A DNA stretch of 64,000 bases, from the NCBI GenBank assembly GCA_016208585.1, contig JACQXR010000039.1, positions 7,163 through 71,162 on the forward strand, in the 5' to 3' direction. The DNA is from a candidate division TA06 bacterium (GTDB lineage Bacteria; Edwardsbacteria; AC1; EtOH8). Of the stretch, positions 9,174 through 49,834 are shown piece by piece. The notes below the pieces were generated by a model. It was given only the letters and a program-made list of their open reading frames with translations, had not been told where the DNA came from and ran no database searches. Position numbers and translations under genes: made by a program. Numbering within the stretch: position 1 is the first letter of the stretch; the number at the start of each line of letters is the position of its first letter.

Positions 9174-10469
9174 TTGATGAAAAAATTCGGCGCCTTAAGC
9201 CTGCAGACCTTTTTATATCAAGCCCTGAGCATGGCACTGGGGCTGGCGTGCGGAGTGCTAGTGGCCCGGTACCTGGGCCCCACCGCCAAAGGAGCCATTG
9301 CCCTGTATGGCCTGATCGCCGGCTTTTTGGTGCTGGCTGGCAATCTGGGGCTGGGGCTGGCCAATGTTCATTTGGCCGGAAGCGGTCAGATAATGCCGGG
9401 CCGGGCTTGGGCCAATTCCCTTTACCTGGCGGTGCTGACCGGATCTCTTCTGGCCGTGCTGACGATATTCTTGTTCCCGGTCCTGGGGATTATCGTAAAA
9501 AGGCCGGTGGACATGGGCCTTTTGGGCATAGTTCTGTGCGGAGTGCCGTTGCTGCTGCTGCTGGATTATCAGATAAACCTGCTGCGGGGACTGGGCGATC
9601 TGGACGGTTTCAACCAGGCGGGTTTGATGCGCCAGGCCGGGCGGCTGGCGGCATTGGGCCTGCTGGTGGCGGCCCTGGGCGGTTTCGTAGCCGCAGCCCT
9701 GTGGGCGGCCAATATTTCAATCGCCGCTGCGGTGCTATGGAGCGGTTTTAGGCTTAAGAAAAAAACCGCCCTGTCGTTGGTACCGTCCTGGATCGGCCTG
9801 AAAAAATCATTGAGCTACGGACTGAAGGGCCAGCCCGGCCAGATAATCCAGTTCTTCAATTACCGTCTGGATCTGATCCTGCTGGCCTTGTTCTGGACCA
9901 ACCGCGAAGTGGGCATCTATGCCACCGCGGTTTTTTTAGCCGAACTGATTTGGTACATTCCGGCGGCGGTCTCCACCGTGCTGCTGCCGGCGGTTTCCTC
10001 GGCAGATTCGGAGTCCCGGGCCAAAAGCATCAGCCTTAAGGCCATCCGGCATACGGTATTCCTGAGCCTGGCCGCAGCGGTCCTCCTAGCCGTTTCGGCC
10101 CAGTGGCTGATAACAGCGCTTTACGGACCGGAATTTGCGCCCGCCGTCCGGGCGCTGCAGATCCTGCTTTTCGGAGTGGTGATGCTTTCGCCGGCCAAGC
10201 TCATCGTCAGCCATCTGGCCGGCGTGGGAAAATCGCAATACGTCAGTTATCTGGCCTTAAGCGGACTGGGCCTGACCCTGCTGCTGGACCTCGTCCTGAT
10301 CCCAAAATTCGGACTGAGGGGCGCGGCCTGGGCCTCGGCCGCCGCTTACAGCTGCTCCGGCCTGCTGTCGCTGTTCTGGCTCAAACGTCATCTGAATGTT
10401 GAGATCGTGCCCAACCTGATCCTGAACAAGGAGGACTGGCAGGAATACCGGGAGTTGATCAATCTATGA
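9174..10469 (+). CDS. Oligosaccharide flippase (Wzx/MOP superfamily polysaccharide biosynthesis protein).
   Basis: Roughly 12 TM segments across 431 aa, with a MOP-like N-terminus and glycine-rich helices. It lies in a glycan locus. Confidence 0.7.
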   Translation: MMKKFGALSLQTFLYQALSMALGLACGVLVARYLGPTAKGAIALYGLIAGFLVLAGNLGLGLANVHLAGSGQIMPGRAWANSLYLAVLTGSLLAVLTIFLFPVLGIIVKRPVDMGLLGIVLCGVPLLLLLDYQINLLRGLGDLDGFNQAGLMRQAGRLAALGLLVAALGGFVAAALWAANISIAAAVLWSGFRLKKKTALSLVPSWIGLKKSLSYGLKGQPGQIIQFFNYRLDLILLALFWTNREVGIYATAVFLAELIWYIPAAVSTVLLPAVSSADSESRAKSISLKAIRHTVFLSLAAAVLLAVSAQWLITALYGPEFAPAVRALQILLFGVVMLSPAKLIVSHLAGVGKSQYVSYLALSGLGLTLLLDLVLIPKFGLRGAAWASAAAYSCSGLLSLFWLKRHLNVEIVPNLILNKEDWQEYRELINL

Positions 10470-11740
10470 AAAAGGTATTGCTGCTGACATCAGTGGAAGT
10501 GCCTTTCCGCGGCAATCTGATAGAAGGGCAGTTCCTGGCTCCGATCCTGGGTGCCGGGGGAAATGACCCCGAACTAAAATTCCGTTACCTGTCGCTGGCC
10601 CCGGTACTGTTCTTTGCCGGGCGCCGCCGGCCCATTAAAACATATCTGGCTGGGCGGGCTAAACGGGCGGCCATAAAATCATTTACCTCAGGCCTGGGCT
10701 GCCGGACGGATATCTGGCCGATCTTATTCCCCTTCTTCCCCCGGGATTTCAACCTTACCAGGCTGAAATATTTTTTGTATCTGGCTTCGGCTCTGGCGCC
10801 GTTCTTCGCCTACCTGTTATTGTACCGCCCAGCTTTGGTGATCGCCCGCAGCTATCCGGCTGCCTCTCTGGCCCGGCTGGCCAAAAAACATTTCGGCATC
10901 CCATATGTTTTTGACCTGCGGGGGATGTACCCCGAGGAGGCGGTCAATGCCGGGGTATTTCCGGCTGACTCGCCGGATTATCGTTTCTGGAAAAAGCAGG
11001 AAAAAGCACTGGCCTCACAGGCATCCCTGAACATAGTGGTTTCGGAGCCGTTTGCCGAGCATCTGAAAAGCATTGATCCCAAAACTCGTTCATCCGTCAT
11101 TCCCTGCTGCGTGAACCTGCAAAAAATAAAGTTTGAACCGGCCCGCCGGGAAACATTAAAAAACAAATATGGGTTAAAAGACAGGTTCGTGCTGCTGCAC
11201 CTGGGGTCATTTGGGACTCCCGAAGACCGGGGCCTGGTGGCAGCCTACCTGCAGCGTTTTAAGAAGGCAAGGCAGGGTGCCTTTCTGGTAGTGGCTTCGG
11301 GCACGCCAGCCTTTTCACCCTCGATCCATCAGGCCTTAAGGACTGCCGGCCTCAAAGAGGGCGATTACCTGCTGGTCAATCCTTCTTCTCCGGAGCAGCT
11401 TTCCGAGATGCTGGCTCTGGGCGATGCCGGGCTGATCCTGGAACGCCGAAAGTCCAATACCAAGGTCTGTCTTTCGGTCAAGCTGGGGGAATATCTGGCT
11501 GCCGGCCTGCCGGTAATCTGCACGCCCTTCGTGGAGGGGGCGGCCCGGCTGGTCCGGCAGTACGATTGCGGCCTGCTGGTTGATCCCGAAGGCGATGAAC
11601 CGCTGGACAAAGAAAAGAGGTTTTTGAAAGATTACCAAATGCTGCGGGACCATGGATTCAAATTGGCAGGGGAAGCGCTGTCTCTGGAGCATTGCCGCCG
11701 GCTGTGGTGGCAATCCTTGTCAGGAGTTATAAGAACATGA
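10466..11740 (+). CDS. Glycosyltransferase, GT-B fold (GT4-like).
   Basis: C-terminal Glycos_transf_1-like region (GLPVICTPFVEGAARLV...GLLVDPEG). There is a 4-nt overlap with the flippase gene. Confidence 0.6.
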   Translation: MKKVLLLTSVEVPFRGNLIEGQFLAPILGAGGNDPELKFRYLSLAPVLFFAGRRRPIKTYLAGRAKRAAIKSFTSGLGCRTDIWPILFPFFPRDFNLTRLKYFLYLASALAPFFAYLLLYRPALVIARSYPAASLARLAKKHFGIPYVFDLRGMYPEEAVNAGVFPADSPDYRFWKKQEKALASQASLNIVVSEPFAEHLKSIDPKTRSSVIPCCVNLQKIKFEPARRETLKNKYGLKDRFVLLHLGSFGTPEDRGLVAAYLQRFKKARQGAFLVVASGTPAFSPSIHQALRTAGLKEGDYLLVNPSSPEQLSEMLALGDAGLILERRKSNTKVCLSVKLGEYLAAGLPVICTPFVEGAARLVRQYDCGLLVDPEGDEPLDKEKRFLKDYQMLRDHGFKLAGEALSLEHCRRLWWQSLSGVIRT

Positions 11741-12960
11741 GGACGAAGTCCAAAATATTTTATTTTGTCTTTCTGCTGGGTCTGGCCTTGAGACTGTCCT
11801 TTGTATTTGCGGTCCCGCCCTTTGCCGGTCCGGACGAGCAGTGCCATTACGATTACGTCAAACATCTGGTCGAAAATAAAACCCTGCCGGCGGACATTTA
11901 CCAGGATGCACATTACGAGTATTTTCAGGCGCCCCTGTATTATCTGACCCTAACGCCGCTCTATGCCCTGGCGGAAGGGCAGTCCCCGGCCTTCCGGCTT
12001 TACCTGCTGCGCCTGTTCAACTTTCTGCTGGCGGCGGCAATCCTCTGGCTGGCTTATCTGATCCTGGGAAGAACCTTTCCCGGAGCCGATTCCCTGATCG
12101 CCGGAGGGCTGGCCTTTGCAGCCTGGCACCCGGTCTATGCCCGGAATTCGGTCTGCATCAACAATGACAACCTGGCGGCATTGATCAGCGCGGTGCTGCT
12201 GTATTTTCTAACAAACAAAGACCTGATCCGGAAACAGTTCAATAAGTACGCTGCCATCGGTCTGCTTTGGGGCCTGGGGGTTCTGGCCAAAACATCGTTG
12301 CTGGCAGTCGCCCCGCTGATCTTCTACTCCGCCAATCAGGACGGAGGAACTGAACCTTTCAAAGTCAAAGGCCGGAAGGGCGCTGTCCTTTTCCTGCTGG
12401 CATCGGCAATAGCCGTTATGACCTGCGGTTTCTGGCTCATCCGCAACCAGGCGCTTTACGGCAACCTGATGGGGATGGGGCCTTACTGGCCCAGGCCCCA
12501 GGCCCCGTTCAGCCTGGCATTTCAGGCGGCCACGCTTAAACATAACTGGGTGAGTTTTTGGCGGTGCTTTAACGTGGCTGGGGAATCCGGGATATGGGAA
12601 ATTTTCAAATATGGCTGGTTGTTGTTTACGGTCGGGGCTTGGATCGGATGGAGCAAACTGTTAGGCTCTAAAAGGAACCTTTTGTACGGTAACGTTGGCC
12701 TTTGCCTTAGTGCTGTCTTGTTCCTTGCTTTTTATGTTGCCGGCTGGCTGTACGGAACAATCTACGGCAAGGGATTTCACGGGTTCTTCGAAGGAAGGTT
12801 TTTGTTTGCAGTGATGATCCCGGCCGGGGCTTTATTTGCTTATGGCATGGAGTCCATCGTTCCCGATGTCCTGAAAAAATATATCTGGGCAGCCTGGTCG
12901 CTTTTGTTGGCATTGAACGCTGGTTTGCTGTTGCTGGCGATGCTGAAAGTAATCCGATAA
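11737..12960 (+). CDS. GT-C fold membrane glycosyltransferase (ArnT/PMT-like, polyprenol-phosphate-sugar dependent).
   Basis: Polytopic protein with an early periplasmic-loop acidic motif (GPDEQCHYDY) following TM1. The ATGA overlap with the upstream stop suggests the start is at 11737. Confidence 0.45.
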   Translation: MRTKSKIFYFVFLLGLALRLSFVFAVPPFAGPDEQCHYDYVKHLVENKTLPADIYQDAHYEYFQAPLYYLTLTPLYALAEGQSPAFRLYLLRLFNFLLAAAILWLAYLILGRTFPGADSLIAGGLAFAAWHPVYARNSVCINNDNLAALISAVLLYFLTNKDLIRKQFNKYAAIGLLWGLGVLAKTSLLAVAPLIFYSANQDGGTEPFKVKGRKGAVLFLLASAIAVMTCGFWLIRNQALYGNLMGMGPYWPRPQAPFSLAFQAATLKHNWVSFWRCFNVAGESGIWEIFKYGWLLFTVGAWIGWSKLLGSKRNLLYGNVGLCLSAVLFLAFYVAGWLYGTIYGKGFHGFFEGRFLFAVMIPAGALFAYGMESIVPDVLKKYIWAAWSLLLALNAGLLLLAMLKVIR

Positions 12961-12978
12961 ATAAAAAGAGGAAAAACC

Positions 12979-13608
12979 ATGTTCAAAAAAGTACTGGTGC
13001 TGGCGCCCCACACCGATGACGGCGAGTTCGGATGCGGGGGATTCATAGCTAAACTGCTGAAGCAAAAAGCGCAGGTTCATTATGCCGCATTTTCCTCGGC
13101 CGAAAAATCGCTGCCTAAAGGGGCCAACCCCGATACTCTCAAAAAAGAGCTTCAGGCGGCCCTGGACAGTCTGGGGATCAAAAAACAACACCGCATCATC
13201 TATAATTATCCGGTGCGCGATTTTCCCCAGCACCGTCAGGCGATATTGGACGACATGATTAGGCTGAAAAGAAAAATAAATCCCGACCTGGTGCTGATCC
13301 CCTGCTTCAACGATACCCATCAGGACCATCTGACCATCGCCCAGGAGGGTTTTAGGGCCTTCAAGGACCGCACTATTCTGGGTTACGAGATCCCCTGGAA
13401 CAATAAGACCTTTGAGACCCAGTCTTTCGTGCTGCTGGAGCCGCGGCATATCGAGGCCAAGATCAAAGCCCTGAAGCGCTATAAGTCCCAGCTGGGGAGG
13501 TTTTACGCCAATCCGGAATTCATCAAGGCTCTGGCCAAGACCCGGGGGACGCAGATCGGGGCCCGGTACGCCGAGGCCTTTGAGGTCATCCGCTGGGTTA
13601 TACATTAA
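12979..13608 (+). CDS. PIG-L/LmbE family N-acetylglucosaminyl deacetylase.
   Basis: VLVLAPHTDDGEFGCGG and the HQDH motif are present. Confidence 0.8.
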   Translation: MFKKVLVLAPHTDDGEFGCGGFIAKLLKQKAQVHYAAFSSAEKSLPKGANPDTLKKELQAALDSLGIKKQHRIIYNYPVRDFPQHRQAILDDMIRLKRKINPDLVLIPCFNDTHQDHLTIAQEGFRAFKDRTILGYEIPWNNKTFETQSFVLLEPRHIEAKIKALKRYKSQLGRFYANPEFIKALAKTRGTQIGARYAEAFEVIRWVIH

Positions 13609-13637
13609 TTGCAAATTCCAAATTACTAATTGAAAAT

Positions 13638-13991
13638 ATGGAAAAGAAAGATATTTGCGAAAGAACTTTTAACTATGCGGTTGCAATTGTTAAATTTTGC
13701 CGGGCAATTGATAATGGGAGAAATGTTGAACGACTTCTATCGCGGCAGCTGTTCCGTTCGGGAACATCTATAGGGGCAAATGTTGAAGAAGCCCAGGCTG
13801 GACAAAGCAAGGCGGATTTCATATCCAAAATGTCAATAGCTCGAAAAGAGGCCAGGGAAACAAGATATTGGCTCTCCCTCTGTAATAGCTTAAACATAGG
13901 CATCCCTCGTGATGTTGATGTTTTACTCAAAGAAATCAACGAATTAATTGCAATATTAACGACGATAATTAAAAAGACAAAGGGTAATTAA
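13638..13991 (+). CDS. Four-helix-bundle protein (TIGR02436; 23S rRNA intervening-sequence protein family).
   Basis: Motifs F.RQL.RS.TSIGAN..EAQ and KMSIARKEARETRYWL are present. The gene is AT-rich. Confidence 0.8.
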   Translation: MEKKDICERTFNYAVAIVKFCRAIDNGRNVERLLSRQLFRSGTSIGANVEEAQAGQSKADFISKMSIARKEARETRYWLSLCNSLNIGIPRDVDVLLKEINELIAILTTIIKKTKGN

Positions 13992-14014
13992 GGAAACAAA
14001 ATGTCATTATTAAT

Positions 14015-14722
14015 TTGGAATTTAGTAATTCAAAGATGATCATCGCCGCGCATCAACCAAACTACCTGCCCTGGGCGGGCTATTTTTATAAAATGGTCCG
14101 CTGCGATGTGTTTGTCTTTATGGACAGCGTTCAGTATTCCCGCACCTCGTACACCGCCCGGTGCTCCATCAAACAAAACGATGGCAACGCCAGCTGGCTC
14201 TCGGTGCCGGTTCTAAAAAAGGGCCGCTACTTCCAAAACGTCAGCGAAGTAATCATTGACAACCAAAGGCCCTGGCAGGCCGAGCATCTGAAGACCTTGG
14301 AATCGTGCTATTCCCGGACGCCGCATTTCAAAGAATATTCCTGGCTGCTGGATCTGGCTTACGGACAAAAATGGGAAAACCTGTCGCAGTTGAACCGGAC
14401 GGTAATAATGAGACTGGCTGAGCATCTGGGAATAAAAACGAAGTTCGTAGACCTTTCAACACTTGATGTCAAAGGCAGCTCTACGGAAATGCTGGTGTCA
14501 CTATGCCGGAGCCTTAATGCGGACGAGTATCTCTCCGGCACAGGGGGACAGAAGTATCTGGACCAGGAACAGTTTCGGCAGGCCGGGATAAGCCTCAAGT
14601 ATACAAAATACCAGCCCCAACCCTATCCTCAGCCCTGGGGAGAATTCGCGCCCGGGCTTTCGATGATAGATATGCTTTTCAACTGCGGGCCGGAAGAAAC
14701 CCAAAAAATAATCATCCATTGA
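14015..14722 (+). CDS. WbqC-like family protein.
   Basis: IAAHQPNYLPWAGYFYKM and QYSRTSYTARC match the WbqC signature (PF08889). Confidence 0.7.
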   Translation: MEFSNSKMIIAAHQPNYLPWAGYFYKMVRCDVFVFMDSVQYSRTSYTARCSIKQNDGNASWLSVPVLKKGRYFQNVSEVIIDNQRPWQAEHLKTLESCYSRTPHFKEYSWLLDLAYGQKWENLSQLNRTVIMRLAEHLGIKTKFVDLSTLDVKGSSTEMLVSLCRSLNADEYLSGTGGQKYLDQEQFRQAGISLKYTKYQPQPYPQPWGEFAPGLSMIDMLFNCGPEETQKIIIH

Positions 14723-14729
14723 ACCTGGC

Positions 14730-15713
14730 ATGAAGATCATTTTGGCCGGAGTGTTCAACGTTCCCTGGTCCACCAACCAGTTCATGAAAAAACACCTGGA
14801 GCGGCTGGGGCACCAGGTATTGCCGTTTGAGATCGACTGGTCCCATCCCCGTCCGTTGAACTTAGCGGAAAGAATCAAGTTCAAGTTTTCTACCACAGCC
14901 AAGGGCCGGCAGGCCGGGACAAAACTGCTACAGATGGCCCAAGCCCAAAATCCCGATGCCGTGATCATCGTCAAGGGAAAACGATTGAATCCCGGCATCA
15001 CAAAACAATTGGCCGCTCAGGCTTTGGTGGCCTACCGTTACATGGATGCCCCGCTTCTGCCTTACGTGGCGGCCCACGCCTCGGCCAGCCATTTGACCCT
15101 GGTGACCGGAGGACATCTTGTTGATCCCTTGGCCAAGATCACCGGAAACAACAATGTCTACAAGCTTCTTGAGGGATGCGATCCCGAAGCACACAAACCA
15201 GTGTCCTTTGACCAGGAGTACTCATGCGATGTGGCTTTCGTAGGCGCTCCGGCCCGGGACCGGATTTCTCTCCTGCGGGCCAGCAAAAAAGCCGGGTATA
15301 AGATAATGATCTGGGGTTCACCGGGCTGGCCCAAAGATCTGGGCTACTGTCAAAAATTCGCTTACGGCCAGGATTTTGCCAAGGTCTGCGCCTCGGCCAG
15401 GATCGTTCTGGGCATTAACAGCCGAAACGACTGCCCCGGCTATTTCTCCGACCGGGCCTTTCTGGTCTTGGCCTGCCGGGGATTTTTTCTGACCCATTAT
15501 GTTCCGGGGCTGGAAAAATATTTTGATAATCACAAGCAGCTGGTATGGTTTAAAGACCGGACCGAGTTGCTGGGAATGACAGATAAATATATTCGCGGCG
15601 ATGCTGCCCGTTCCGATATTGCCGGGGCGGGACAGAAACTGGTATATCAAAAATATACCTGGGAGAAATCCATGCGGGTTCTGATGGAAATCCTGAAACA
15701 ACAAAAGCGCTGA
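14730..15713 (+). CDS. CgeB-like glycosyltransferase (DUF3880 plus Glyco_trans_1_2).
   Basis: N-terminal pattern MKI..........LGHQV..F and C-terminal GFFLT..Y region. It is a paralog of 37042-38094. Confidence 0.5.
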   Translation: MKIILAGVFNVPWSTNQFMKKHLERLGHQVLPFEIDWSHPRPLNLAERIKFKFSTTAKGRQAGTKLLQMAQAQNPDAVIIVKGKRLNPGITKQLAAQALVAYRYMDAPLLPYVAAHASASHLTLVTGGHLVDPLAKITGNNNVYKLLEGCDPEAHKPVSFDQEYSCDVAFVGAPARDRISLLRASKKAGYKIMIWGSPGWPKDLGYCQKFAYGQDFAKVCASARIVLGINSRNDCPGYFSDRAFLVLACRGFFLTHYVPGLEKYFDNHKQLVWFKDRTELLGMTDKYIRGDAARSDIAGAGQKLVYQKYTWEKSMRVLMEILKQQKR

Positions 15714-16684
15714 TGCGCCCGGAACTGTTGGAAATACTGCAATGTCCCGGCTGCCGGCAAAGCAACTGGCGGCTTAAGTCACTGAAGGAAGACAACCGGG
15801 AGATCCGCCGGGGGGCTTTGACCTGCGCGGGCTGTCAAAGTATTTATTCCATAAACAACGGGATACTTGACTGCCTGGTTGGCGGACACCCCTGGATAGA
15901 GAGCGCCCAAAGAAGCTATCGCCGCTCAAAAACAACCACCGCTCAAAAATGGAGCCCGGAACAACTGGCCCGGCGGAAACACCTGGAAAACACTTATACC
16001 AGCGACAGCCGGGCCAACTTTGCCCAGCTGATAAAAAGACTGCCGGCGGGAGAGGGTTGGGCTTTGGACATGGGAGCCGGAACGGGGTGGACCACTGCGC
16101 AAATCGCGGCCCTGGGCTACCGGAGCATTGCCCTGGACATCAGCGCCGACAATAAGTTGGAGCTGGGAGAATGTTTTTTTGACCGCAACATTTACTTTGA
16201 CCGGATACTGGCCGATATGAACCGGCTGCCATTTAAGGCCGGCTCGCTGTCTTTAGCGGCCGCCTCGGCCGTCCTGCATCACAGTTATGATCTGAGCGGA
16301 GCGGTCCGGGAAATAAGTCGGACGCTGGTCCCTAACGGCCGGCTGGAACTGGCCAATGAGCCGGTGAAGGGTTTGGCCGAAGCTTTTTTATCCCGGCCCG
16401 GTAATATTGACGAAGATGTCAAAGAGGCCAGCTATTCGCTGTCAACCTGGCGGGCCCTGTTACTTCGTTACGGACTTGAAAACAGGATATATTTTCCCCA
16501 AAGCATTCAACTAAGGCTGGCAAAAAATAATTTCAACCCCCGGCATAAATTTTTCATTGCCGCCCGGGCGGTCTCCGGTCTGGCCAGATCGGCGCCGGGA
16601 CTGTTGTTCGGCGGCTTCAGCTTAAAGTTGGGCCACGCACTGTTCGGCCTGCCCCTGTCGCTTTCGGCCAGAAAGATGAAATGA
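15713..16684 (+). CDS. Class I SAM-dependent methyltransferase with an N-terminal Trm112-like zinc ribbon.
   Basis: LEILQCPGC...LTCAGC is a zinc ribbon. ALDMGAGTGWTT is motif I. Confidence 0.7.
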   Translation: MRPELLEILQCPGCRQSNWRLKSLKEDNREIRRGALTCAGCQSIYSINNGILDCLVGGHPWIESAQRSYRRSKTTTAQKWSPEQLARRKHLENTYTSDSRANFAQLIKRLPAGEGWALDMGAGTGWTTAQIAALGYRSIALDISADNKLELGECFFDRNIYFDRILADMNRLPFKAGSLSLAAASAVLHHSYDLSGAVREISRTLVPNGRLELANEPVKGLAEAFLSRPGNIDEDVKEASYSLSTWRALLLRYGLENRIYFPQSIQLRLAKNNFNPRHKFFIAARAVSGLARSAPGLLFGGFSLKLGHALFGLPLSLSARKMK

Positions 16685-18507: not shown

Positions 18508-18591
18508 CCAAGACCTAATTGACCAAGGTATAAAATTATTGACTTTTAACATATCTTGTGTTATCATAATCTGTTATAAATCAAGGTTATA

Positions 18592-22425: not shown

Positions 22426-22492
22426 TAGGTTTCCGGCCGGCCCCTGAAACATGCCCCAAGAGGATCAAAACGATGAAAAGGAGAATCCATTG

Positions 22493-35061: not shown

Positions 35062-35064
35062 ACA

Positions 35065-36177: not shown

Positions 36178-36196
36178 AAACCGCGGAGTTGTATAT

Positions 36197-38094: not shown

Positions 38095-38106
38095 CGGAGC
38101 GCCGGT

Positions 38107-40654: not shown

Positions 40655-40663
40655 AAAATTATT

Positions 40664-41068: not shown

Positions 41069-41139
41069 TCTTCGGGTTAGTAACAGCAATGCTTTCGACC
41101 GGTATTTAAAAATGTATCGAATTACGACATGGAGCAAAA

Positions 41140-41889: not shown

Positions 41890-42042
41890 GCTTCTAAGCA
41901 AATTAAATGACGGCAAGGAAAAGTTGAGGGATATTGAAAATATCAATCAGCGAGAGTCTTGAACAAATTCTTTAGACAGAATATTTAACCGCAACGAATT
42001 GCTAATACTAAGTTAAAAGTTTTATATTAAGAGAGAACAACA

Positions 42043-42668: not shown

Positions 42669-42672
42669 AAAA

Positions 42673-43566
42673 ATGACAAATCAAACCGTTAATAATGATC
42701 CAGCCCCGGTCTCTATTCTAGTCATAACCAGAAATGAAGAGAGGAATATTAGTTCTTGCCTGGAAAGCCTTGGCTGGGCTACGGAACTGGTCGTTCTTGA
42801 TTCCTTCAGCACCGATGCCACGGTCAGTTTAGCTGAAAAGTACGGGGCCAGGGTTTTTCAGCGGCAATTCGATAATTTTGCCTCCCATAAAAACTGGGCC
42901 ATTGATCATATCGACTTTAAAAACCGGTGGCTGCTGATAGTAGATGCCGATGAGAGAGTAAGCCTCAAGCTGGCCCGGGAGATAGAGTCGTTGCTGGCGG
43001 CGCCGTCCGAACACAACGGCTATTATATCGCCCGCCAGAATATATTTGCCGGCAAATGGATTCGGTTTGGCGGCTGGTATCCCGACTGGCAGCTGCGGCT
43101 GATAAAAATCGGCAAGGCCCGATATGAGAACCGGATAGTTCATGAACATATGATGCTGGAAGGGTCTGCTGGTTTTTTGAAAAATCCGCTAGTACACTAT
43201 GATTACAAGGGTATCGAAAGATATTTTAATCGCCATAATACTTACTCCAGTATGGAAGCAGTGGAAATTTACCGATCCCTTAATGGGTTGAACAATAAGG
43301 GTATCATTCCGGAGGGGTTTTTATCAAAGGGTCCAGCCCGACGAAGATTCCTGAAAAATTTTGCCTATCGGCACCTTTTTGCTCGCCCATTATTCAAGTT
43401 CATTTGGATGTATTTCCTGAAGTTTGGATTTTTAGACGGCAGGATAGGGTTTCGTTTTTCAATGCTGCATGCCTTTTATGATTATCAGATCAGCCTGAAG
43501 CTAAACGAGTTGAAAGACAAAAATTCGCCGCTATATGAAAAATATAAGGAATATATTGAAAAATGA
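42673..43566 (+). CDS. Glycosyltransferase family 2.
   Basis: VSILVITRNEE...LDSFSTD and a DAD motif are present. Confidence 0.8.
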   Translation: MTNQTVNNDPAPVSILVITRNEERNISSCLESLGWATELVVLDSFSTDATVSLAEKYGARVFQRQFDNFASHKNWAIDHIDFKNRWLLIVDADERVSLKLAREIESLLAAPSEHNGYYIARQNIFAGKWIRFGGWYPDWQLRLIKIGKARYENRIVHEHMMLEGSAGFLKNPLVHYDYKGIERYFNRHNTYSSMEAVEIYRSLNGLNNKGIIPEGFLSKGPARRRFLKNFAYRHLFARPLFKFIWMYFLKFGFLDGRIGFRFSMLHAFYDYQISLKLNELKDKNSPLYEKYKEYIEK

Positions 43567-44510
43567 CTTCACCGGAAGGCATATGTTTGATCTGCGGGAG
43601 CAAAATTGAAACAACAGTTAAGAATGTGTTTGATACCAGATTTGGGATAAAGGGATTTTACGATGTCGGCAAATGCCTTTCCTGCGGCCTGGAACAACTG
43701 TTTCCCCGTCCGGACGGTAACGAACTGAAGAAGCTTTATGAGGATCACTATAATTTTCAGGGGGGCGATAGCGCGAAATACCGGGCCAGACGGCAGAAGT
43801 TCTTGTCTTCTTTTCTCTACAGGTTTTGGATGTTTATTGACGGCGATATCGCTTTTTACCGGACAAAGGGCCGGGGCCGGCTTTTGGATGTCGGCTGCAA
43901 TGAGGGCCGGGGGATGATTCGGTACCAAAGAAACGGCTATACGGTTGAAGGGCTGGAGATCAACCGGGTGGCGGCCCAGGCCGCCCGGTCTCTGGGTTTT
44001 ATGGTGCATGCCGATCCGCTGGAAAGCTTTCAGCCTTCGGAAGCATACGATGTAGCGGTGCTGGCCAATGTTTTGGAGCACTCATTGGCTCCGGCTGATA
44101 TGCTTGAAAGCATCGGAGATCTGCTAATGCCCGGCGGCCAGGTTTGGATAAGCTGTCCCAACGGTCAAAGCTGGTATAAAAAAATTTTCGGCCGATACTG
44201 GATAAACTGGCATCCGCCGTTCCACCTTGTCCATTTTTCCCGGACGACCCTGGTCAAAATGTTGAACAGGGAAGGCTTTGCCGTAGAAACAGTAAAAAAC
44301 GAGACCCCGGCGCTGTGGGTCGCCCAATCGCTGATAGCTGCCGGATTTGCCCGGCTGGGCATTGTCACGCGGCAGCTGCGTACAGCCTGGCTGGTGGGCG
44401 GCGCCATGCTCCTGATCCGCCTGCTGTTTTTTCCGCTGCTCTGGTTGGGGAACCTGCTGGGGAGAGGTGACTGCCTGGTGATAAAGGCTTATAGGGGTAA
44501 GGGCGATTGA
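43563..44510 (+). CDS. Class I SAM-dependent methyltransferase with an N-terminal zinc ribbon.
   Basis: CLICGS...CLSCG is the zinc ribbon. LLDVGCNEGRG is motif I. Confidence 0.7.
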   Translation: MTSPEGICLICGSKIETTVKNVFDTRFGIKGFYDVGKCLSCGLEQLFPRPDGNELKKLYEDHYNFQGGDSAKYRARRQKFLSSFLYRFWMFIDGDIAFYRTKGRGRLLDVGCNEGRGMIRYQRNGYTVEGLEINRVAAQAARSLGFMVHADPLESFQPSEAYDVAVLANVLEHSLAPADMLESIGDLLMPGGQVWISCPNGQSWYKKIFGRYWINWHPPFHLVHFSRTTLVKMLNREGFAVETVKNETPALWVAQSLIAAGFARLGIVTRQLRTAWLVGGAMLLIRLLFFPLLWLGNLLGRGDCLVIKAYRGKGD

Positions 44511-45763
44511 AGATTCTGATATACGGACTAAATTTCTGGCCGGAATTGACCGGCATAGGAAAATACACCAGCGAAATGGCGGAATGGCTGGCCGGCCGGG
44601 GCCATAAAGTTGAGGTCATTACCACGCCGCCCTATTATCCTATGTGGAAGGTGCCACAGGGATACACCAGCCTCTTTTACAACAAAGAGCAGTGGGGTAA
44701 GGTGTCCATCTGCCGCTGTCCCCTATGGGTGCCGGACCGGCCCAACGGATTCAAGCGGGTGATGCACCTGTTGTCCTTCGTGCTGAGCAGTCTGCCGGTT
44801 CTCGTATATATGGCGATCGCCGGCCGGCCCGATGTCATCTGGACCGTGGAACCGGCCTTCCTGGGGGTTCCGGGAACCTGGCTGGCGGCCAGGCTGTCGG
44901 GGGCCCGCTGCTGGCTTCATGTCCAGGATTTTGAGATCGATGCCGCCTTTGGACTGGGGTTGTTAAGGGGGCGGATCCTTTATAAAATCATGTCGGTCAT
45001 GGAACGGTGGCTGATGGCCCGCTTTGATAGAATTTCCAGCATTTCCCAGGCGATGGTGGGAAAGCTGAAAGAACGGGGAATAGGGGAGGGAAAATCGGCC
45101 CCGTTCTCCAATTGGGTTGACACTGCCCTGATCCGCCCGCTGCCCCGGGAAAAATCGCTCAGAACGGAATGGGGCATTCCGGACGATAAGACCGTGGTGC
45201 TGTATTCCGGCAATATGGGGAAAAAGCAGGGCTTGGACCTTGTGTTGCAACCTGCCGGAGAATTCAGGAACAGCCATCCCGGGGTCATCTTTTTATTGGT
45301 CGGCGAGGGAGCGGCCCGCCGGGAAATCGCCGCTGAGGCTGAAAGGATGGGTCTGGATAACATCCTGTTCAAGCCTCTCCAGCCTGCCGCAGCCATGCCG
45401 GCTCTGCTGGCCAGCGGGGACATCCATCTGGTTCTGCAGAAGAGGGGAGTGGCGGACCTGGCGATGCCCTCAAAATTGACAGGCATACTGGCCGCCGGGG
45501 GGGCGGCCATTTTGACGGCCGATCCAGGAACGGAAATGTATCGGGCCGTCAGCGAAAATAATCTGGGCTACATTATCGAGCCGGAGTCCGCTCCGGCCCT
45601 GGCCCAAGCCTTGGCTGAGTTGATCAATAACCGGGAGATGAGGGACAAATTCAGGAAAAACGCCAGGGATTATGCCGAGCAATACCTGGACAAGAATAAA
45701 ATCCTTGCCGCGATGGAGGACGAATTAAAAGCAATGCCAAAGGCCCGCGATCACGACCGCTAA
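44507..45763 (+). CDS. WcaI/WbuB-type GT4 glycosyltransferase.
   Basis: MKILIYGLNFWPELTGIGKYTSEMAEWLAGRGHKVEVITTPPYYPMW is the hallmark N-terminus of the WcaI family. Confidence 0.8.
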   Translation: MKILIYGLNFWPELTGIGKYTSEMAEWLAGRGHKVEVITTPPYYPMWKVPQGYTSLFYNKEQWGKVSICRCPLWVPDRPNGFKRVMHLLSFVLSSLPVLVYMAIAGRPDVIWTVEPAFLGVPGTWLAARLSGARCWLHVQDFEIDAAFGLGLLRGRILYKIMSVMERWLMARFDRISSISQAMVGKLKERGIGEGKSAPFSNWVDTALIRPLPREKSLRTEWGIPDDKTVVLYSGNMGKKQGLDLVLQPAGEFRNSHPGVIFLLVGEGAARREIAAEAERMGLDNILFKPLQPAAAMPALLASGDIHLVLQKRGVADLAMPSKLTGILAAGGAAILTADPGTEMYRAVSENNLGYIIEPESAPALAQALAELINNREMRDKFRKNARDYAEQYLDKNKILAAMEDELKAMPKARDHDR

Positions 45764-45782: not shown

Positions 45783-47270
45783 ATGAATAATCCAATAAAA
45801 GTTTACCTGCTGTTGCTATCAGCATCTGTTGCTATGAACGGGGATCCCTGCCAGGCGGCCGATTTCACAATAACCGACCGGGGTTTGGAAAGGCTTTCGG
45901 AAGAACTGGAACTGAGGGGTTTGGCGCCGGCAGCTTCGCTTGGCGGACCCCTGCTTTTCAGCCGCTTTCGGCAGTGCCCTGATTCGGTCAAAAGCCTGGG
46001 CCAGTTCAAAGAGCTAAGCCGGGGAGTCCCCTACAATCATGACCAGAACCTAGGCCTCTTCTCTACGATTGAGAGCAGTCTGGAACAAAGCCGGACCGGG
46101 CATTCAACCATCGGCCATTTCCGGGGCGGCCTGCTGATGGGCTCGGGGCCCTGGTCAATGGCGGGAACCTATGACGGCGTTTCCGGAGATGATGCCCAAG
46201 ATAATTATTACGGCTACCGCTGGCGGGGGGTCCGGGCCAGGACCGACCAGGTTTACCTGAGGTGGTCAGGCGACAGGGCTTTCTGCCAGCTGGGCAAGGA
46301 CTACCTGCGGTACGGTTTGGGGATGGGATTGGCGGGCAACTCCCCCGTTGAGAATATTCAGGCAGGAATTCGGGTCGGCCGGCACATAAAGCTGCATGGC
46401 TTTACCGGCAAACTGGACGGATGGCTCAGGGACAGCGTTTTCGTCAACCGCTTCCTGGCCGGCCATCGGGTCCAACTGGATATCGGATTCCTCCAGCTGG
46501 GGCTTTCGGAGTTTGCCATATACGGCGGCCCCGGCAGGACCTACGAGCCTTATTACCTGCTGCCGCTGTACATATTTCTGGGCGAGCAGGACAACCGCCA
46601 GATCGACGACAATATCATCTGGGACCTGGACTGCAAAGTATTGCTGCCGCCATTTGCCTTCAAGGCCGAGCTGATGGTGGACGATTTTCAGATAGAACGT
46701 AAAAGCAGGGGGGATGAGGAACCCACCGAGGCCGGATTTGGAATCCAGGCCGACTGGGCCATCCTGTCATCTCCGCTGTATCTCAGCGCAACGGCATCCT
46801 ATCGGATGGTCACCAACTGGACATTCAATCAGAATAAGGACTGGAACCGTTTCATTTTTGAGGGCCAGCCCATAGGTCCCCGGGAGGGAAACGATTTTGA
46901 TCTGGCCAGCTTCAAGCTTAACGCCCTCGGCAACCGCTGGGATGCCTGGGCCGAGATCTATTACCGGCGGAGGGGCCAGGGCCGGATAGACGATCCCTGG
47001 ACCAGCCCCTGGACGACAGATTCCACCTGGAGCCAAACTTTTCCCAGCGGCTTGGTGGAGAAAATCACGGGGTTTCAGGCCGGGATAAATTACCTGCTGC
47101 CGGGTTCATGGTTTTTCGGCTCCCGGAGACAGGCCGGCGTTTTCGGGCAATGGAGTTATCGGCAGGCGGTAAATCAGTCTAACCTGCCCGGGATTGACGG
47201 CAAAGACTGGGTTATTAAATTGGGCTTGGGAATTTCACTGTCCCGCAGCTTAGAAACACTTGCCCAATAG
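45783..47270 (+). CDS. Secreted or outer-membrane protein, tentatively Wzi-like capsule-assembly protein.
   Basis: Signal peptide, and a Trp/Tyr/Gly-rich beta-rich composition typical of OM barrels. Locus context supports the call. Wzi identity is not verifiable by eye. Confidence 0.3.
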   Translation: MNNPIKVYLLLLSASVAMNGDPCQAADFTITDRGLERLSEELELRGLAPAASLGGPLLFSRFRQCPDSVKSLGQFKELSRGVPYNHDQNLGLFSTIESSLEQSRTGHSTIGHFRGGLLMGSGPWSMAGTYDGVSGDDAQDNYYGYRWRGVRARTDQVYLRWSGDRAFCQLGKDYLRYGLGMGLAGNSPVENIQAGIRVGRHIKLHGFTGKLDGWLRDSVFVNRFLAGHRVQLDIGFLQLGLSEFAIYGGPGRTYEPYYLLPLYIFLGEQDNRQIDDNIIWDLDCKVLLPPFAFKAELMVDDFQIERKSRGDEEPTEAGFGIQADWAILSSPLYLSATASYRMVTNWTFNQNKDWNRFIFEGQPIGPREGNDFDLASFKLNALGNRWDAWAEIYYRRRGQGRIDDPWTSPWTTDSTWSQTFPSGLVEKITGFQAGINYLLPGSWFFGSRRQAGVFGQWSYRQAVNQSNLPGIDGKDWVIKLGLGISLSRSLETLAQ

Positions 47271-47294: not shown

Positions 47295-48422
47295 ATGGTA
47301 ACGGACATCAATAAAGCCAGGATAGCACTGGTTCACGATTATCTCAACCAGTATGGTGGGGCGGAGAGGGTGCTGGAGGCTATTCACGGGCTTTTCCCCC
47401 AGGCTCCGGTATATACTTTGCTTTATGACCAGGCGAAACTTCCCGATCATTTTAAGCTTTGGGAGATCAGAGCGTCCTTCCTGAACCGGATGCCTGGACG
47501 CCGGCGGCATTACCAGAAAATGCTGCCGCTTTTCCCTTTAGCCATTGAAAGCTTTGACCTGAGAGATTACGACATCGTGATCTCCAGTTCTAATGCCTGG
47601 GCCAAGGGGGCCGTTACTTCCGGCCGGACTTTTCATCTATGTTACATCCATACCCCCATGCGATTCGTGCGGGACTGGTATCACCACATTCCTTTTGAAC
47701 ACAATGCCCTGACCAATGTCTTTCTTCTGCCATTGTTAAACCGGATCCGGGGGTGGGACACCGCCAGCGCTGCCCGTCCGGATTGCTATATTTCAAATTC
47801 CAATGAAGTCCAGGACCGGGTGTCCAAATACTACCGGCGCCCCTCGCAGGTCATTTACCCGCCGGTAAACACCGACTTCTTCCGGCCGGCCGATGCCCCG
47901 CCTGGCGGAGATTATTTTCTGACTGTCTCCAGGTTAAAGCCATACAAGAGGCTGGATCTGGCGGTAAAGGCTTTCAACGAGATGGACCTGAAGCTTACCA
48001 TCGTGGGCGAGGGGAGCGAGCTTAATAAGCTTAAAAAGATGGCCGGCCCCAAGATCAAATTGGCCGGCAGAGTGTCCGACATGCAGTTGCTCAACTATTA
48101 CCAGAACTGCCGGGCCCTGGTATTTCCCGGCCTGGAGGATTTTGGCATTGCCCCGGTAGAGGCCCAGTCCTGCGGCCGTCCGGTGATTGCCTACGGGAAG
48201 GGCGGGTGCCGGGAAACGGTTATTGACAAAGGGACCGGAATACTGTTTTCCCGCCAGACAGAGGCCGGCCTAATGGAAGCGGTCAGATCCTTCAAGCCGG
48301 AGGACTTTGACCGGCAGGCCATCAGGCGGCATGCCCTTTCCTTTGACCGGAAGATTTTCGTAGGCAAATTTACCGAGATGTTAGCCAACCAATATTCCAA
48401 CTTTATCAAAAAAACGGCCTGA
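47295..48422 (+). CDS. Glycosyltransferase family 4.
   Basis: IALVHDYLNQYGGAERV and VFPGLEDFGIAPVEAQSCGRPVIAYGKGG are present. Confidence 0.8.
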   Translation: MVTDINKARIALVHDYLNQYGGAERVLEAIHGLFPQAPVYTLLYDQAKLPDHFKLWEIRASFLNRMPGRRRHYQKMLPLFPLAIESFDLRDYDIVISSSNAWAKGAVTSGRTFHLCYIHTPMRFVRDWYHHIPFEHNALTNVFLLPLLNRIRGWDTASAARPDCYISNSNEVQDRVSKYYRRPSQVIYPPVNTDFFRPADAPPGGDYFLTVSRLKPYKRLDLAVKAFNEMDLKLTIVGEGSELNKLKKMAGPKIKLAGRVSDMQLLNYYQNCRALVFPGLEDFGIAPVEAQSCGRPVIAYGKGGCRETVIDKGTGILFSRQTEAGLMEAVRSFKPEDFDRQAIRRHALSFDRKIFVGKFTEMLANQYSNFIKKTA

Positions 48423-48424
48423 AC

Positions 48425-49834
48425 ATGAAAAAGAACTGGTCCGGCCTGTATTCCTGGTTGTCGGTGGCCAGCGACATGATATTAGGATTAGTAGCCGGGC
48501 AGCTGTTGTGGCGGCTATGGTTTGTGGAATGGGGCAATTGGCTGGGACCGCAACCCCTGGAGATGGAGCAGAAAATTTTGGTGGTTTTTTCCCTTCTGCT
48601 CTCGATACTATTGCATGGCGGTTACCGCAATACCTATAAACTGAACCGCCTGGAGCAGATCCTGAACATCTATAAATCATCGCTGGTCAGCCTGTTCTCT
48701 ATAATTCTAATTGTATTTATAATCAAGGGTTACCGATATTCCCGGGGCTACATCGTGCTCTACTATACCGTGGCTCCTTTCTTTCTGTCGCTGGGCAGGG
48801 TAGCTTTGTTTTCGCTTAATCTGGCCCTGATGAAGCGCGGTTGGGGGATAAAGAAGGCCGTCATCGCGGGCAGTAGTAAACCCGCCAAAGCAATACTTGA
48901 CCACCTTTTGGAAAACCGGGCCTACGGTTATCAAATAGTGGGTTTTTTGGTGGGCCATCCCCAAGACCTTTCCTTCGGCTACCGCGGAGTCAAAGCTATC
49001 GGCCTGCACAGCCAATGCAATTTGGCCGTCAGGGACCGGAAGGTTGAAAAGATTTTCATCCCGGGACTTACCGGGCGGCTGGCGGATTATAGCGACATGC
49101 TGGAGCTGTGCCGGCATCTGAAAATAGAGGTCAGCATCATTTCCCATCGTTTTGACCTGCTTGCCCGGGCAGCCGGAATATACGATGTGGCCGGGGTGGC
49201 AATACTCTCCCAACCCGGGCCCTTCTACGCCAGAATGTACCCGGTTATCAAGCGGATCTTGGATATTGGCCTGTCCAGCCTGGCCCTGCTGTTGTTCAGC
49301 CCGCTGATGCTGTTTATTTCCCTTATGATAAAATTGAACTCCCCCGGCCCGGTTTTCTTCCGACAGCAGCGGTTCGGCAAGGATAGCCGACTCTACCAGC
49401 TGATGAAATTTCGCACCATGCGCCAGGGGACCGATAAGATCAAAAAAGATCTCCAGCACCAGAACGAAGCCGACGGACCGATATTCAAGATGAAAGACGA
49501 CCCCCGGATCACCCGGGTGGGCCGCTGGCTGAGGCGGCTGAGCTTGGATGAACTGCCGCAATTGATAAATGTTTTCCGGGGCGAGATGAGCCTGGTGGGC
49601 CCGCGTCCGCCGCTTCCTTCCGAGGTCGAGCATTACCAGAAATGGCATAAATACCGGCTGAACGGCCCCCAGGGCATGACCGGACTTTGGCAGGTTTCGG
49701 GGCGAAGCGAATTATCTTTCGAGGAAATGGTCCTGCTGGATATCTACTATCTGGAGCACTGGTCCCCTATGATGGACATAGAGATACTCATCAAAACCAT
49801 CCCGGCGGTGATAACCGCTAAAGGCGCATACTAA
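48425..49834 (+). CDS. Initiating polyprenyl-phosphate glycosyl-1-phosphate transferase (WbaP/exopolysaccharide sugar transferase family).
   Basis: The bacterial sugar transferase C-terminal domain is present: DIGLSSLALLLFSPLMLFISLMIKLNSPGPVFFRQQRFGK...KFRTM...DELPQLINV..GEMSLVGPRP. Confidence 0.85.
   Translation: MKKNWSGLYSWLSVASDMILGLVAGQLLWRLWFVEWGNWLGPQPLEMEQKILVVFSLLLSILLHGGYRNTYKLNRLEQILNIYKSSLVSLFSIILIVFIIKGYRYSRGYIVLYYTVAPFFLSLGRVALFSLNLALMKRGWGIKKAVIAGSSKPAKAILDHLLENRAYGYQIVGFLVGHPQDLSFGYRGVKAIGLHSQCNLAVRDRKVEKIFIPGLTGRLADYSDMLELCRHLKIEVSIISHRFDLLARAAGIYDVAGVAILSQPGPFYARMYPVIKRILDIGLSSLALLLFSPLMLFISLMIKLNSPGPVFFRQQRFGKDSRLYQLMKFRTMRQGTDKIKKDLQHQNEADGPIFKMKDDPRITRVGRWLRRLSLDELPQLINVFRGEMSLVGPRPPLPSEVEHYQKWHKYRLNGPQGMTGLWQVSGRSELSFEEMVLLDIYYLEHWSPMMDIEILIKTIPAVITAKGAY

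Follow-up and report, generated by a model that had tools for sequence, protein, structure and literature searches.

A type IX secretion cargo gene held in the conserved core of a probable capsule locus of a candidate division TA06 bacterium

Why a gene for a type IX secretion system (T9SS) cargo protein should lie inside a polysaccharide locus is the question raised by a 64-kb window (the whole stretch of DNA analysed, 64,000 nucleotides) of contig JACQXR010000039.1. Positions 9174-49834 of this window form one plus-strand array of about 36 genes with short gaps between them, and the cargo gene, at 28615-29883, encodes a protein that ends in a T9SS C-terminal domain (CTD). The original prediction described a mosaic, methyltransferase-rich polysaccharide locus with an amidotransferase and proposed, by way of the Bacteroidota, that it builds the glycan anchoring T9SS cargo. 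The description is borne out by Pfam and NCBIfam domain searches, in which open reading frames (ORFs) of at least 100 amino acids were listed and the co-oriented plus-strand series at 9174-49834 was scanned at curated cut-offs. Most methyltransferases and glycosyltransferases (GTs) keep their assigned families instead of moving to unrelated functions, and the proposed WbaP, Wza-like, PIG-L, WbqC, epimerase and AsnB proteins all have domain matches. The anchor-glycan proposal is unsupported: linking-sugar genes of the Wbp/Vim type and a recognisable WaaL ligase are missing from the array, while capsule export genes are present. The explanation that fits best, and to which we give an even chance, is a Wzx/Wzy-dependent capsule or extracellular polysaccharide (EPS) locus whose core includes a T9SS-displayed fibre, acting to bind or trim the polymer that the locus itself produces.

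Nor is the setting that of the Bacteroidota. An exact-sequence look-up of the cargo protein came back empty, but the protein matches one from a candidate division TA06 bacterium at 100% identity and has orthologues in Candidatus (Ca.) Edwardsbacteria metagenome-assembled genomes and metagenome contigs. Judged by these matches, the source organism belongs to candidate division TA06/Ca. Edwardsbacteria, a candidate lineage within the FCB group (Fibrobacteres-Chlorobi-Bacteroidetes).

Capsule-type export

A WbaP, Wzx, Wzy-like, Wza, polysaccharide co-polymerase (PCP)-like and Wzi-like set fits a Wzx/Wzy-dependent capsule or EPS pathway. Its genes are listed here with the rest of the conserved core.

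9174-10469, + strand: Wzx1, MOP-family flippase, about 12 hydrophobic helices (PF13440, 60.6 bits, cut-off 23)
20100-22121, + strand: Wza-type outer-membrane polysaccharide export (OPX) protein, conserved core (SLBB domains; PF02563 at 59.7 bits over a cut-off of 28)
22451-23530, + strand: PCP/Wzz-like protein, no kinase domain, conserved core (two transmembrane helices around a soluble domain; weak matches)
23585-25384, + strand: AsnB-type glutamine amidotransferase, conserved core (TIGR01536, 390 bits, cut-off 267)
28615-29883, + strand: T9SS type-A CTD cargo protein, conserved core (TIGR04183 and PF18962)
31225-32730, + strand: 14-helix membrane protein, putative Wzx2, conserved core (topology and position; 47-66% identity in relatives, 30% in the distant locus L012)
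37042-38094, + strand: CgeB-like glycosyltransferase (Glyco_trans_1_2), copy 2 (CgeB2), conserved core (PF13524, E 2.8e-25; 58-71% identity in relatives)
38107-39642, + strand: Wzy-like polytopic membrane protein, 511 residues, conserved core (assigned by topology; SEDS-like fold match, weak)
39593-40654, + strand: GT4f glycosyltransferase, HpsP-like, conserved core (PF00534; NF038295, 272 bits, below cut-off; 62-84% identity in relatives)
45783-47270, + strand: Wzi-like secreted outer-membrane capsule-assembly protein, 495 residues (signal peptide seen; PF14052 on homologues)
48425-49834, + strand: WbaP-type initiating polyprenyl-phosphate hexose-1-phosphate transferase (PF02397, E 2.9e-65; TIGR03025, 394.8 bits, cut-off 295.6)

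The initiating transferase, the MOP-family Wzx and the OPX exporter are each recognised by family models. The Wzi-like protein has no PF14052 match of its own, but this domain is present in ten of its homologues, at 31-44% identity and E values as low as 1e-109, so the 495-residue protein is probably a distant Wzi relative; the UniRef name of the homologues begins 'Capsule assembly Wz', which we read as Wzi. Together, the Wza, PCP-like and Wzi-like proteins would send the polymer out as capsule or EPS, not onto lipid A.

Of the remaining assembly proteins that had been proposed, three stand in part. Two Wzx flippases were named; the first has its PF13440 match, whereas the second (31225) is placed by its 14-helix topology and conserved position, with no Pfam, NCBIfam or PDB sequence match and no significant similarity to Wzx1 by BLASTP or hhalign. 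For the Wzz-like protein (22451) the two-helix topology agrees, though the family matches are weak (Wzz, GNVR and Wzc at E 6.5e-4 to 0.07, and EpsF), and the genes of relatives are weakly annotated as Wzz. The Wzy-like protein (38107) likewise has a suitable topology, with a weak fold match. Four array proteins lack a Pfam match, namely the 14-helix (31225), 282-residue (36197), 511-residue polytopic (38107) and 495-residue secreted (45783) proteins. PDB sequence searches with these four and with a GT-C-like protein described below returned nothing significant.

A cargo gene locked into a recombining locus

The CTD protein, assigned from TIGR04183 and PF18962 matches above cut-off, is not encoded by a recent, unrelated insertion. 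Among the loci with an orthologue, four have long flanks (L001, L004, L007 and L008); in all four the gene keeps its position, and its full-length orthologues are 66-72% identical. The ratio of non-synonymous to synonymous substitution (dN/dS) is 0.05-0.14, with dS saturated, and similar values are obtained for AsnB, Wza and the Wzy-like protein. The gene is therefore a long-standing member of the locus under purifying selection. Conserved gene order runs Wza, Wzz-like, AsnB, a variable segment, the CTD gene, a second variable segment, Wzx2, a GT4, the 282-residue protein or a methyltransferase, CgeB2, Wzy-like and GT4f. Shorter orthologue contigs (L003, L006, L009) show the same neighbours over their extent. 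No plus-strand terminator-like site was found 3′ of the CTD gene, in a terminator scan that itself stayed at chance level.

This constancy stands amid extensive exchange. The cassette genes between the core genes and immediately downstream of them are as follows.

25381-26064, + strand: FkbM-type methyltransferase, variable cassette (PF05050, E 2.7e-15; GC 38%; absent from relatives)
26099-26359, + strand: leftover 3′ end from a second asnB (tblastn against the resident AsnB)
26369-27166, + strand: S-adenosylmethionine (SAM)-dependent methyltransferase, N-terminal 2xCxxC ribbon, variable cassette (PF13489; CKFC...CTHC; GC 33%; orthologue only in L008)
27123-28235, + strand: GT9 glycosyltransferase, variable cassette (PF01075, E 2.7e-24)
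30010-31221, + strand: GT4c glycosyltransferase, variable (PF00534; non-orthologous to the gene of relatives)
32764-33696, + strand: NAD-dependent sugar epimerase/dehydratase, variable (PF01370, E 6.2e-52)
33901-35061 and 35065-36177, + strand: GT4d and GT4e glycosyltransferases (PF00534; relatives have either one or the other)
36197-37045, + strand: 282-residue protein, possible diverged FkbM-like methyltransferase, paired with CgeB2 (motifs only)
40664-41068, + strand: VanZ-like small membrane protein (PF04892, 26.8 bits, below the cut-off of 30.1; 80% identity to the L007 gene)
41140-41889, + strand: SAM methyltransferase (PF13489, PF08241; 90% identity to the L007 gene)
42043-42646, + strand: frameshifted SAM methyltransferase (PF13847 and PF13489 on the 131-residue N-terminal part, 42043-42438)
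42646-43566, + strand: GT2 glycosyltransferase (PF00535)

Mosaicism, as originally proposed, is evident in a drop in GC content, in non-orthologous gene replacement among related loci and in the asnB remnant. GC content is 33-50% across 25381-43566 versus 52-60% elsewhere. A recent import of the low-GC block into one genome is rejected: the loci of relatives are equally low (43-45%), while Edwardsbacteria genome names indicate 50-54%, so low GC is a property of the cassette region. Low GC is usual in many O-antigen and capsule loci. DNA identity with relatives comes in blocks of 62-86% that end at cassette borders. Within an apparent intergenic gap, 26099-26359 encodes 88 amino acids that are 60% identical to residues 509-596 of the resident AsnB (E 1e-31, tblastn), and about 26098-28210 is collinear with the asnB-3′/methyltransferase/GT9 segment of L008 at 73% nucleotide identity. 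This remnant is a direct recombination scar and marks one exchange point. Neither IS-like nor long repeats turned up at the borders of the low-GC segment in a repeat search.

Genes have been replaced on both sides of the CTD gene. Between AsnB and the CTD gene the window has the FkbM, methyltransferase and GT9 genes, L001 and L004 have one GT4, L007 has a methyltransferase and a GT4, and L008 has a methyltransferase, a GT9 and a 274-residue ORF. On the other side, GT4c has only weak partial matches in relatives, and the window epimerase has no tblastn match at E<=1e-5 in the loci of relatives, which have their own epimerase gene; by this comparison both are non-orthologous to the GT4 and epimerase at the equivalent position. 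Comparison of the loci thus marks 25.4-43.6 kb as a recombining cassette region whose GT and methyltransferase genes differ among related genomes, and amid this turnover Wza, the PCP-like protein, AsnB, the CTD protein, Wzx2, CgeB2, the Wzy-like protein and GT4f are kept. In L001 (2321-3535) and L008 (609-1841) a polytopic membrane protein of 404-410 residues, with no counterpart in the window, lies between a GT4 and wza; it could be of ligase or polymerase type.

More distant loci (L012, L014 and L016, 35-46% identity) retain a neighbourhood of CgeB-like, GT4, GT9 and methyltransferase genes, together with a Wzx2-like protein in L012 and the 282-residue protein in L016. The Wzy-like and Wzx2-like proteins of L012 are 35% and 30% identical to those of the window. 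L012 (GCA_945861535.1) has an exosortase EpsH gene at the locus end (19000-20538), its PCP carries a kinase domain, and it has no T9SS CTD gene.

A predicted short fibre with a phage-shared head

The CTD protein comprises a signal peptide (residues 1-19), an orphan head (about 35-165), a fibre repeat (about 165-280), a linker and the CTD (339-422). The Sec signal peptide, MRKLFFLLGWFSFVTAAWG/SQ, can be read directly from the sequence. At the other end, residues 339-419 match the type-A sorting domain (TIGR04183, 36 bits, cut-off 23; PF18962, 31 bits, cut-off 27), with the motifs YPNP and a terminal K-M-I-L-I-R. Many CTD proteins from FCB candidate phyla are among the database matches of this protein, and the literature suggests that further FCB phyla may possess a T9SS (PMC11285876). 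A literature search returned nothing specific on T9SS in TA06/Edwardsbacteria.

The fibre repeat (residues 165-279), with the motif GxVGIGTxxPxAKLxV, matches the beta-helix fibre of Bdellovibrio Bd2133 (8ond) at E 1.2e-4 in a PDB profile search and also gives a weak PHROG tail-protein match. Mosaic adhesive trimer (MAT) fibres of Bdellovibrio are trimeric, phage-tail-fibre-like, surface-displayed glycan binders (PMC10769870). An exhaustive phmmer search with residues 34-309 against 1.84 billion representative proteins gave about 8000 matches, all but three of them confined to residues of about 205-300 and belonging to giant repeat proteins. The head (the N-terminal ~130 residues) was found, among these 1.84e9 representatives, only in orthologues and in one further protein, P0007 (49% identity). 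It was not found in IMG/VR, and one Edwardsbacteria genome is its only carrier among the GTDB species representatives. P0007 has 585 residues and a collagen-like N-terminus, is encoded downstream of a tape-measure gene and matches a tail-fibre PHROG. Its gene lies at 10001-11758 of locus L011, a 52-kb phage contig (SRR13662871_2031) of 52% GC, like Edwardsbacteria genomes.

Only about one fibre repeat is present in the CTD protein, the globular module is N-terminal, a C-terminal tip or S74 chaperone is lacking, and the C-terminus is the T9SS CTD. Taken from these similarities, the predicted product is a short fibre made of an orphan head, one trimeric fibre repeat, a linker and a sorting domain.

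Proposed function

In the explanation preferred here, repeat units would be built on undecaprenyl phosphate, decorated (methylated, amidated and partly de-N-acetylated), flipped and then polymerised by the 511-residue Wzy-like protein under the control of the PCP-like protein. The polymer would leave through Wza and be retained at the surface by the Wzi-like protein. Meanwhile, the CTD protein would be exported by Sec, cross the outer membrane through T9SS and stand on the surface as a short trimeric fibre, the orphan head facing outward. There, the head would bind or trim the polymer of its own locus, acting as a lectin/organiser or as a depolymerase. Outside the orthologues, a phage tail fibre is the one known protein with this head, and the gene is firmly embedded in the locus; binding or trimming of this polymer is therefore its most likely role, an inference drawn from linkage, selection and the phage homologue.

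Several observations weigh against this explanation. The 64-kb window contains no gene for T9SS machinery, so that the CTD is the single sign from which T9SS secretion is predicted. In P0007 the shared head module sits near the N-terminus, and the N-terminus of a tail fibre is usually virion-proximal, not the receptor-binding tip. No catalytic or sugar-binding family was detected in the head domain, and the AlphaFold2 model of the CTD protein, built from a 7-sequence alignment, reached a mean confidence (pLDDT, predicted local distance difference test) of 34.8 and was unusable for a fold search. On the export side, the window contains no bacterial tyrosine kinase (BY-kinase) domain, and the Wzy, Wzx2 and PCP assignments are putative, drawn from topology, position or weak matches. 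Two flippase candidates and two GT9 domains perhaps point to two different glycans, one of them possibly LPS-linked. Finally, no CTD gene is visible in the distant loci L012, L014 and L016; since those loci function without it, the CTD protein would be an accessory and not a requirement.

Alternative explanations

The alternative that survives best, and is compatible with a polymer-binding fibre, is that the array holds two adjacent systems. The left arm (9174-19791, with Wzx1, GT-C, PIG-L, WbqC and GT2-GT9) would then serve LPS core or O-unit synthesis or a protein glycan, and the Wzx2/Wzy/Wza arm the capsule. Besides Wzx1, the left arm consists of the following genes.

10466-11740, + strand: GT4a glycosyltransferase (PF13439, PF00534)
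11692-12960, + strand: GT-C-like polytopic membrane protein, PMT_2/ArnT-like, at least 9 helices (PF13231, 29.8 bits, cut-off 26.1)
12979-13608, + strand: PIG-L family de-N-acetylase (PF02585, E 1.2e-17)
13638-13991, + strand: 23S_rRNA_IVP family protein (PF05635, E 3.8e-21; GC 39%)
14015-14722, + strand: WbqC-like protein (PF08889, E 1e-76)
14730-15713, + strand: CgeB-like glycosyltransferase (Glyco_trans_1_2), copy 1 (PF13524, E 8.3e-22)
15713-16684, + strand: SAM methyltransferase, N-terminal Trm112p-type zinc ribbon (PF08241, PF03966; CPGC...CAGC)
16681-18507, + strand: GT2-GT9 fusion glycosyltransferase (PF00535 at residues 6-107, PF01075 at 386-572)
18592-19791, + strand: GT4b glycosyltransferase (PF00534, E 1.2e-30)

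Two unrelated flippase candidates would suit such a division, as would GT9 domains, which are typical of LPS-core heptosyltransferases (the NCBIfam match of the GT2-GT9 fusion is heptosyltransferase-like, below cut-off). The left arm also has normal GC next to the low-GC cassette region, and L012 has the right-arm gene set only. Yet there is a single initiating transferase, WbaP, all genes lie on one strand with short gaps, and in relatives too the Trm112-type methyltransferase, GT9 and GT4 genes stand directly before wza. We consider a division into two systems less likely than not. Within the left arm, the 23S_rRNA_IVP gene (39% GC) is alone in a background of 50-59% and resembles a small separate insertion.

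A fibre without any functional link to the polymer would be a phage-derived gene captured once in the ancestor of the clade and held between recombination anchors, serving particle or cell adhesion or phage exclusion. The head shared with a phage tail fibre, the tiny and clade-restricted head family and the distant loci without a CTD gene all agree with this, and Bdellovibrio fibres of this type bind foreign surfaces, not self (PMC10769870). Against such a capture, both flanks of the CTD gene have been replaced repeatedly while it stayed in its exact place, purifying selection is as strong as for the assembly genes, and the gene is co-oriented, with no terminator-like site on its 3′ side. We regard an absent link as rather unlikely.

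Still less probable is a cargo-specific tether, in which this fibre protein alone would be joined covalently to the polymer of the locus, through the C-terminus left after CTD removal or by glycosylation, to give a protein-tipped capsule. Strict co-inheritance of the CTD gene with the assembly core speaks for it, and so does the distantly related locus L012, which has an exosortase instead. In the PEP-CTERM/exosortase model of Haft, exosortase, too, is reportedly a C-terminal sorting enzyme that goes together with EPS loci. The best sub-threshold matches of AsnB and Wza are XrtA/PEP-CTERM models, and the array encodes a GT-C/PMT_2-like enzyme whose site of action could be the periplasm. Against a tether, the parallel with exosortase is drawn by analogy from a locus whose core proteins are only 30-35% identical, and we know of no Wza-exported capsule polymer that serves as a PorU acceptor. 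Sequons of the type D(S/T)(A/I/L/V/M/T) (PMC8550257), counted by eye and not computed, number about three in the CTD protein, which is roughly chance.

Taking this further, capsule locus and T9SS cargo could form one unit, the fibre, once its CTD has been removed, being covalently coupled to or specifically docked on a methylated, amidated polymer to make a protein-tipped capsule, a T9SS counterpart of the exosortase/PEP-CTERM-EPS pairing of a distant homologous locus, with a phage having borrowed the head to recognise the surface. We hold this to be improbable.

Anionic lipopolysaccharide and the general anchor

The A-LPS/A-linking saccharide pathway of Porphyromonas gingivalis anchors T9SS cargo (PMC13086638, PMC7468200), and the original prediction called for a gene-set comparison with it. 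A-LPS-specific functions comprise WbpA, B, E, D, VimA, VimE, WbpS, WbaP, GtfC, GtfF and VimF, together with Wzx, Wzy, WaaL and WzzP (Veith et al., PMC13086638). At the level of enzyme class, an amidotransferase of the WbpS class (AsnB, 23585) and a WbaP-class initiator (48425) are present, as are the Wzx/Wzy/Wzz classes and the association with T9SS cargo. The linking-sugar enzymes and WaaL were not found. No UDP-sugar dehydrogenase, Gfo/Idh/MocA, DegT, hexapeptide or acyl/acetyltransferase domain occurs in the ORFs of 9174-49834, although such genes could lie elsewhere in the genome, and the locus has no Wzy_C/WaaL ligase domain. With neither Wbp/Vim genes nor a recognisable WaaL, the anchor-glycan idea is unsupported; Wza and Wzi are present here, and the phylum is another. 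The A-LPS genes of P. gingivalis are scattered, and none is reported to adjoin a cargo gene (PMC5445135).

That the locus makes a dedicated glycolipid for PorU-type attachment of T9SS cargo in general, like A-LPS, is therefore very improbable: in its favour are the stably embedded cargo gene, the WbaP and AsnB-type enzymes that are the classes of WbaP and WbpS in the A-LPS pathway (PMC13086638) and a PIG-L deacetylase that could expose a sugar amine as acceptor, but six of the seven Wbp/Vim linking-sugar enzymes are without counterpart, a WaaL/Wzy_C domain is lacking, Wza, the PCP-like and the Wzi-like proteins point to capsule export, a hypervariable cassette region stands where a conserved structure would be expected, the locus has one linked cargo gene only, and the lineage is not Bacteroidota. 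A specific relation of this one CTD protein with this polymer may nonetheless be compatible with the failure of a general anchor.

Methyltransferases and remaining genes

Three more genes complete the array.

43563-44510, + strand: SAM methyltransferase, N-terminal 2xCxxC ribbon (PF13489; CLIC...CLSC)
44507-45763, + strand: GT4g, WcaI-family glycosyltransferase (NF007640, 524 bits, cut-off 276)
47295-48422, + strand: GT4h glycosyltransferase (PF00534)

About 14 glycosyltransferases had been counted, and 13 of GT-A/GT-B fold plus one GT-C-like protein were found (eight GT4, two CgeB-like, GT2-GT9, GT9 and GT2); Pfam confirms both CgeB-like paralogs (14730, 37042) and the GT2-GT9 fusion (16681). 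Features newly added to the earlier inventory are the Wzi-like gene (45783-47270), VanZ (40664), 23S_rRNA_IVP (13638) and the truncated asnB 3′ end (26099-26359).

Of seven methyltransferases proposed, Pfam confirms six (15713, 25381, 26369, 41140, 42043 and 43563), while the seventh, presumably 36197-37045, is unproven. The same gene divides the claim of two FkbM-type enzymes: 25381 matches PF05050, whereas the 282-residue protein has FkbM-like motifs (FVEIGTGNG, SLDIDGNDYY) but no Pfam, NCBIfam or PDB match, and none to PF05050 at E<=1. Compared with the FkbM protein of the locus, it gives no significant BLASTP alignment and an hhalign E of 0.14. Its orthologues occur in L001, L008 and L016; even in the distant L016 (3709-5606, 52% identity) the gene lies directly upstream of, and overlaps, the CgeB-like GT gene, as it does in the window (36197-38094). 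L004 and L007 have a conventional methyltransferase at this position instead. Three enzymes do carry zinc ribbons, with an N-terminal 2xCxxC in 15713 (also a Trm112p match), 26369 and 43563. The frameshift is confirmed in the 42043 gene, broken near 42435: in a three-frame translation about 75 C-terminal residues continue in another frame, and the L007 orthologue is intact (208 residues). The break may reflect either a genuine pseudogene or an indel in the assembly.

A heavily O/N-methylated glycan is a reasonable expectation from these genes, but it over-reads their number, with one methyltransferase broken and one unproven, and with possibly two glycans served, given two flippase candidates. 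In Tannerella forsythia three locus methyltransferases account for only two methyl groups (PMC6120980), which counsels caution in inferring methyl content from gene counts.

Both flanks are unrelated to the array. Upstream are ClpB, PHP, ThiD, FeoAB and BatA, followed, between the BatA-like gene and Wzx1, by a 341-residue protein (7954-8979) with two hydrophobic segments, a long coiled-coil C-terminus and no family match. Downstream come major facilitator superfamily (MFS) and ATP-binding cassette (ABC) genes and then an arsenic/metal cluster. Two ABC ATPase ORFs (51052-51729 and 51612-52457) overlap by 118 bases, which makes a later start codon probable for the second. The metal cluster, 52528-60445, encodes LMWPc (ArsC-like), a CDF transporter, CdhD-like, rhodanese and DsbD-like proteins, an ACR3-type SBF transporter and ArsR. 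The LMWPc at 52528 was considered as a Wzb phosphatase and rejected; it lies beyond the MFS/ABC genes, near ArsR and ACR3, and is more likely ArsC-like. Rfam and tRNA scans were empty, and promoter and terminator scans stayed at chance level.

Relation to known systems

Group-1-type capsule and EPS loci, such as E. coli K30, the Klebsiella K loci and colanic acid, share with the present locus a WbaP/WcaJ-class initiator, a flippase, a candidate polytopic polymerase, the Wza OPX, PCP-like and probable Wzi-related proteins and a GT of the WcaI family, as well as conserved assembly genes around a low-GC, recombining, serotype-like cassette. Unlike them, it shows no BY-kinase/phosphatase partner for the PCP-like protein, no described family accommodates its candidates for Wzy and Wzx2, and it contains six or seven methyltransferases and a T9SS cargo gene in the conserved core.

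The 27-kb O-glycosylation cluster of T. forsythia is polycistronic, with Wzx, five GTs, three methyltransferases and AsnB, and its glycan, which is methylated and contains a uronamide, is carried by T9SS-secreted S-layer proteins (PMC6120980). Wzx, several GTs, methyltransferases and AsnB in one cluster are common to both; the T. forsythia cluster differs in lacking Wzy, Wza, PCP and Wzi, in making an oligosaccharide instead of a polymer and in having its targets encoded elsewhere. With the O-glycosylation flippase model, which has a cut-off of 720, Wzx1 reaches 35.5 bits.

XrtA/EpsH-PEP-CTERM EPS loci offer a conceptual parallel, in that an EPS locus goes with a surface protein sorted by its C-terminus, and the distant L012 has an exosortase. 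The nearest NCBIfam models of Wza (EpsE and a PEP-CTERM export protein), AsnB (347 bits to an XrtA/PEP-CTERM amidotransferase model) and several GT4s are EPS and XrtA/PEP-CTERM models, all below cut-off, and WbaP too has its best neighbours among PEP-CTERM models; Wza is 54-75% identical in relatives. The window differs in having no exosortase (no PF09721 match) and no PEP-CTERM protein, and its sorting signal is a T9SS type-A CTD.

With phage tail fibres and MAT fibres the CTD protein shares the beta-helix repeat, and its head is 49% identical to a phage tail-fibre protein. It differs in having about one repeat where those have a long stalk, in its N-terminal globular module and in the T9SS CTD that replaces an S74 chaperone or tip. 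Among T9SS cargo, RemA of Flavobacterium johnsoniae was reportedly described by Shrivastava et al. in 2012 as a secreted lectin interacting with a polysaccharide of Wza/Wzc-linked genes. RemA, which is listed as T9SS cargo (PMC5445135), resembles the present fibre as cargo cooperating with a secreted surface polysaccharide, but it is a gliding adhesin without sequence relationship, and remA is not reported in a polysaccharide locus.

Were the cargo gene and the locus merely co-located, what is left would be an ordinary, though unusually methyltransferase-rich, capsule locus. The Wzy-like protein, Wzx2 and the 282-residue CgeB partner represent protein families, described collectively as membrane-protein families, that no current family library recognises. 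Outside the Bacteroidota, to our knowledge, almost nothing is known of the function or surface retention of T9SS cargo. With one cargo gene and one polysaccharide pathway genetically bound together in several genomes, the locus would provide a concrete protein-glycan pair for T9SS-polysaccharide coupling in other FCB phyla and, in an uncultivated lineage, a candidate phage-receptor system.

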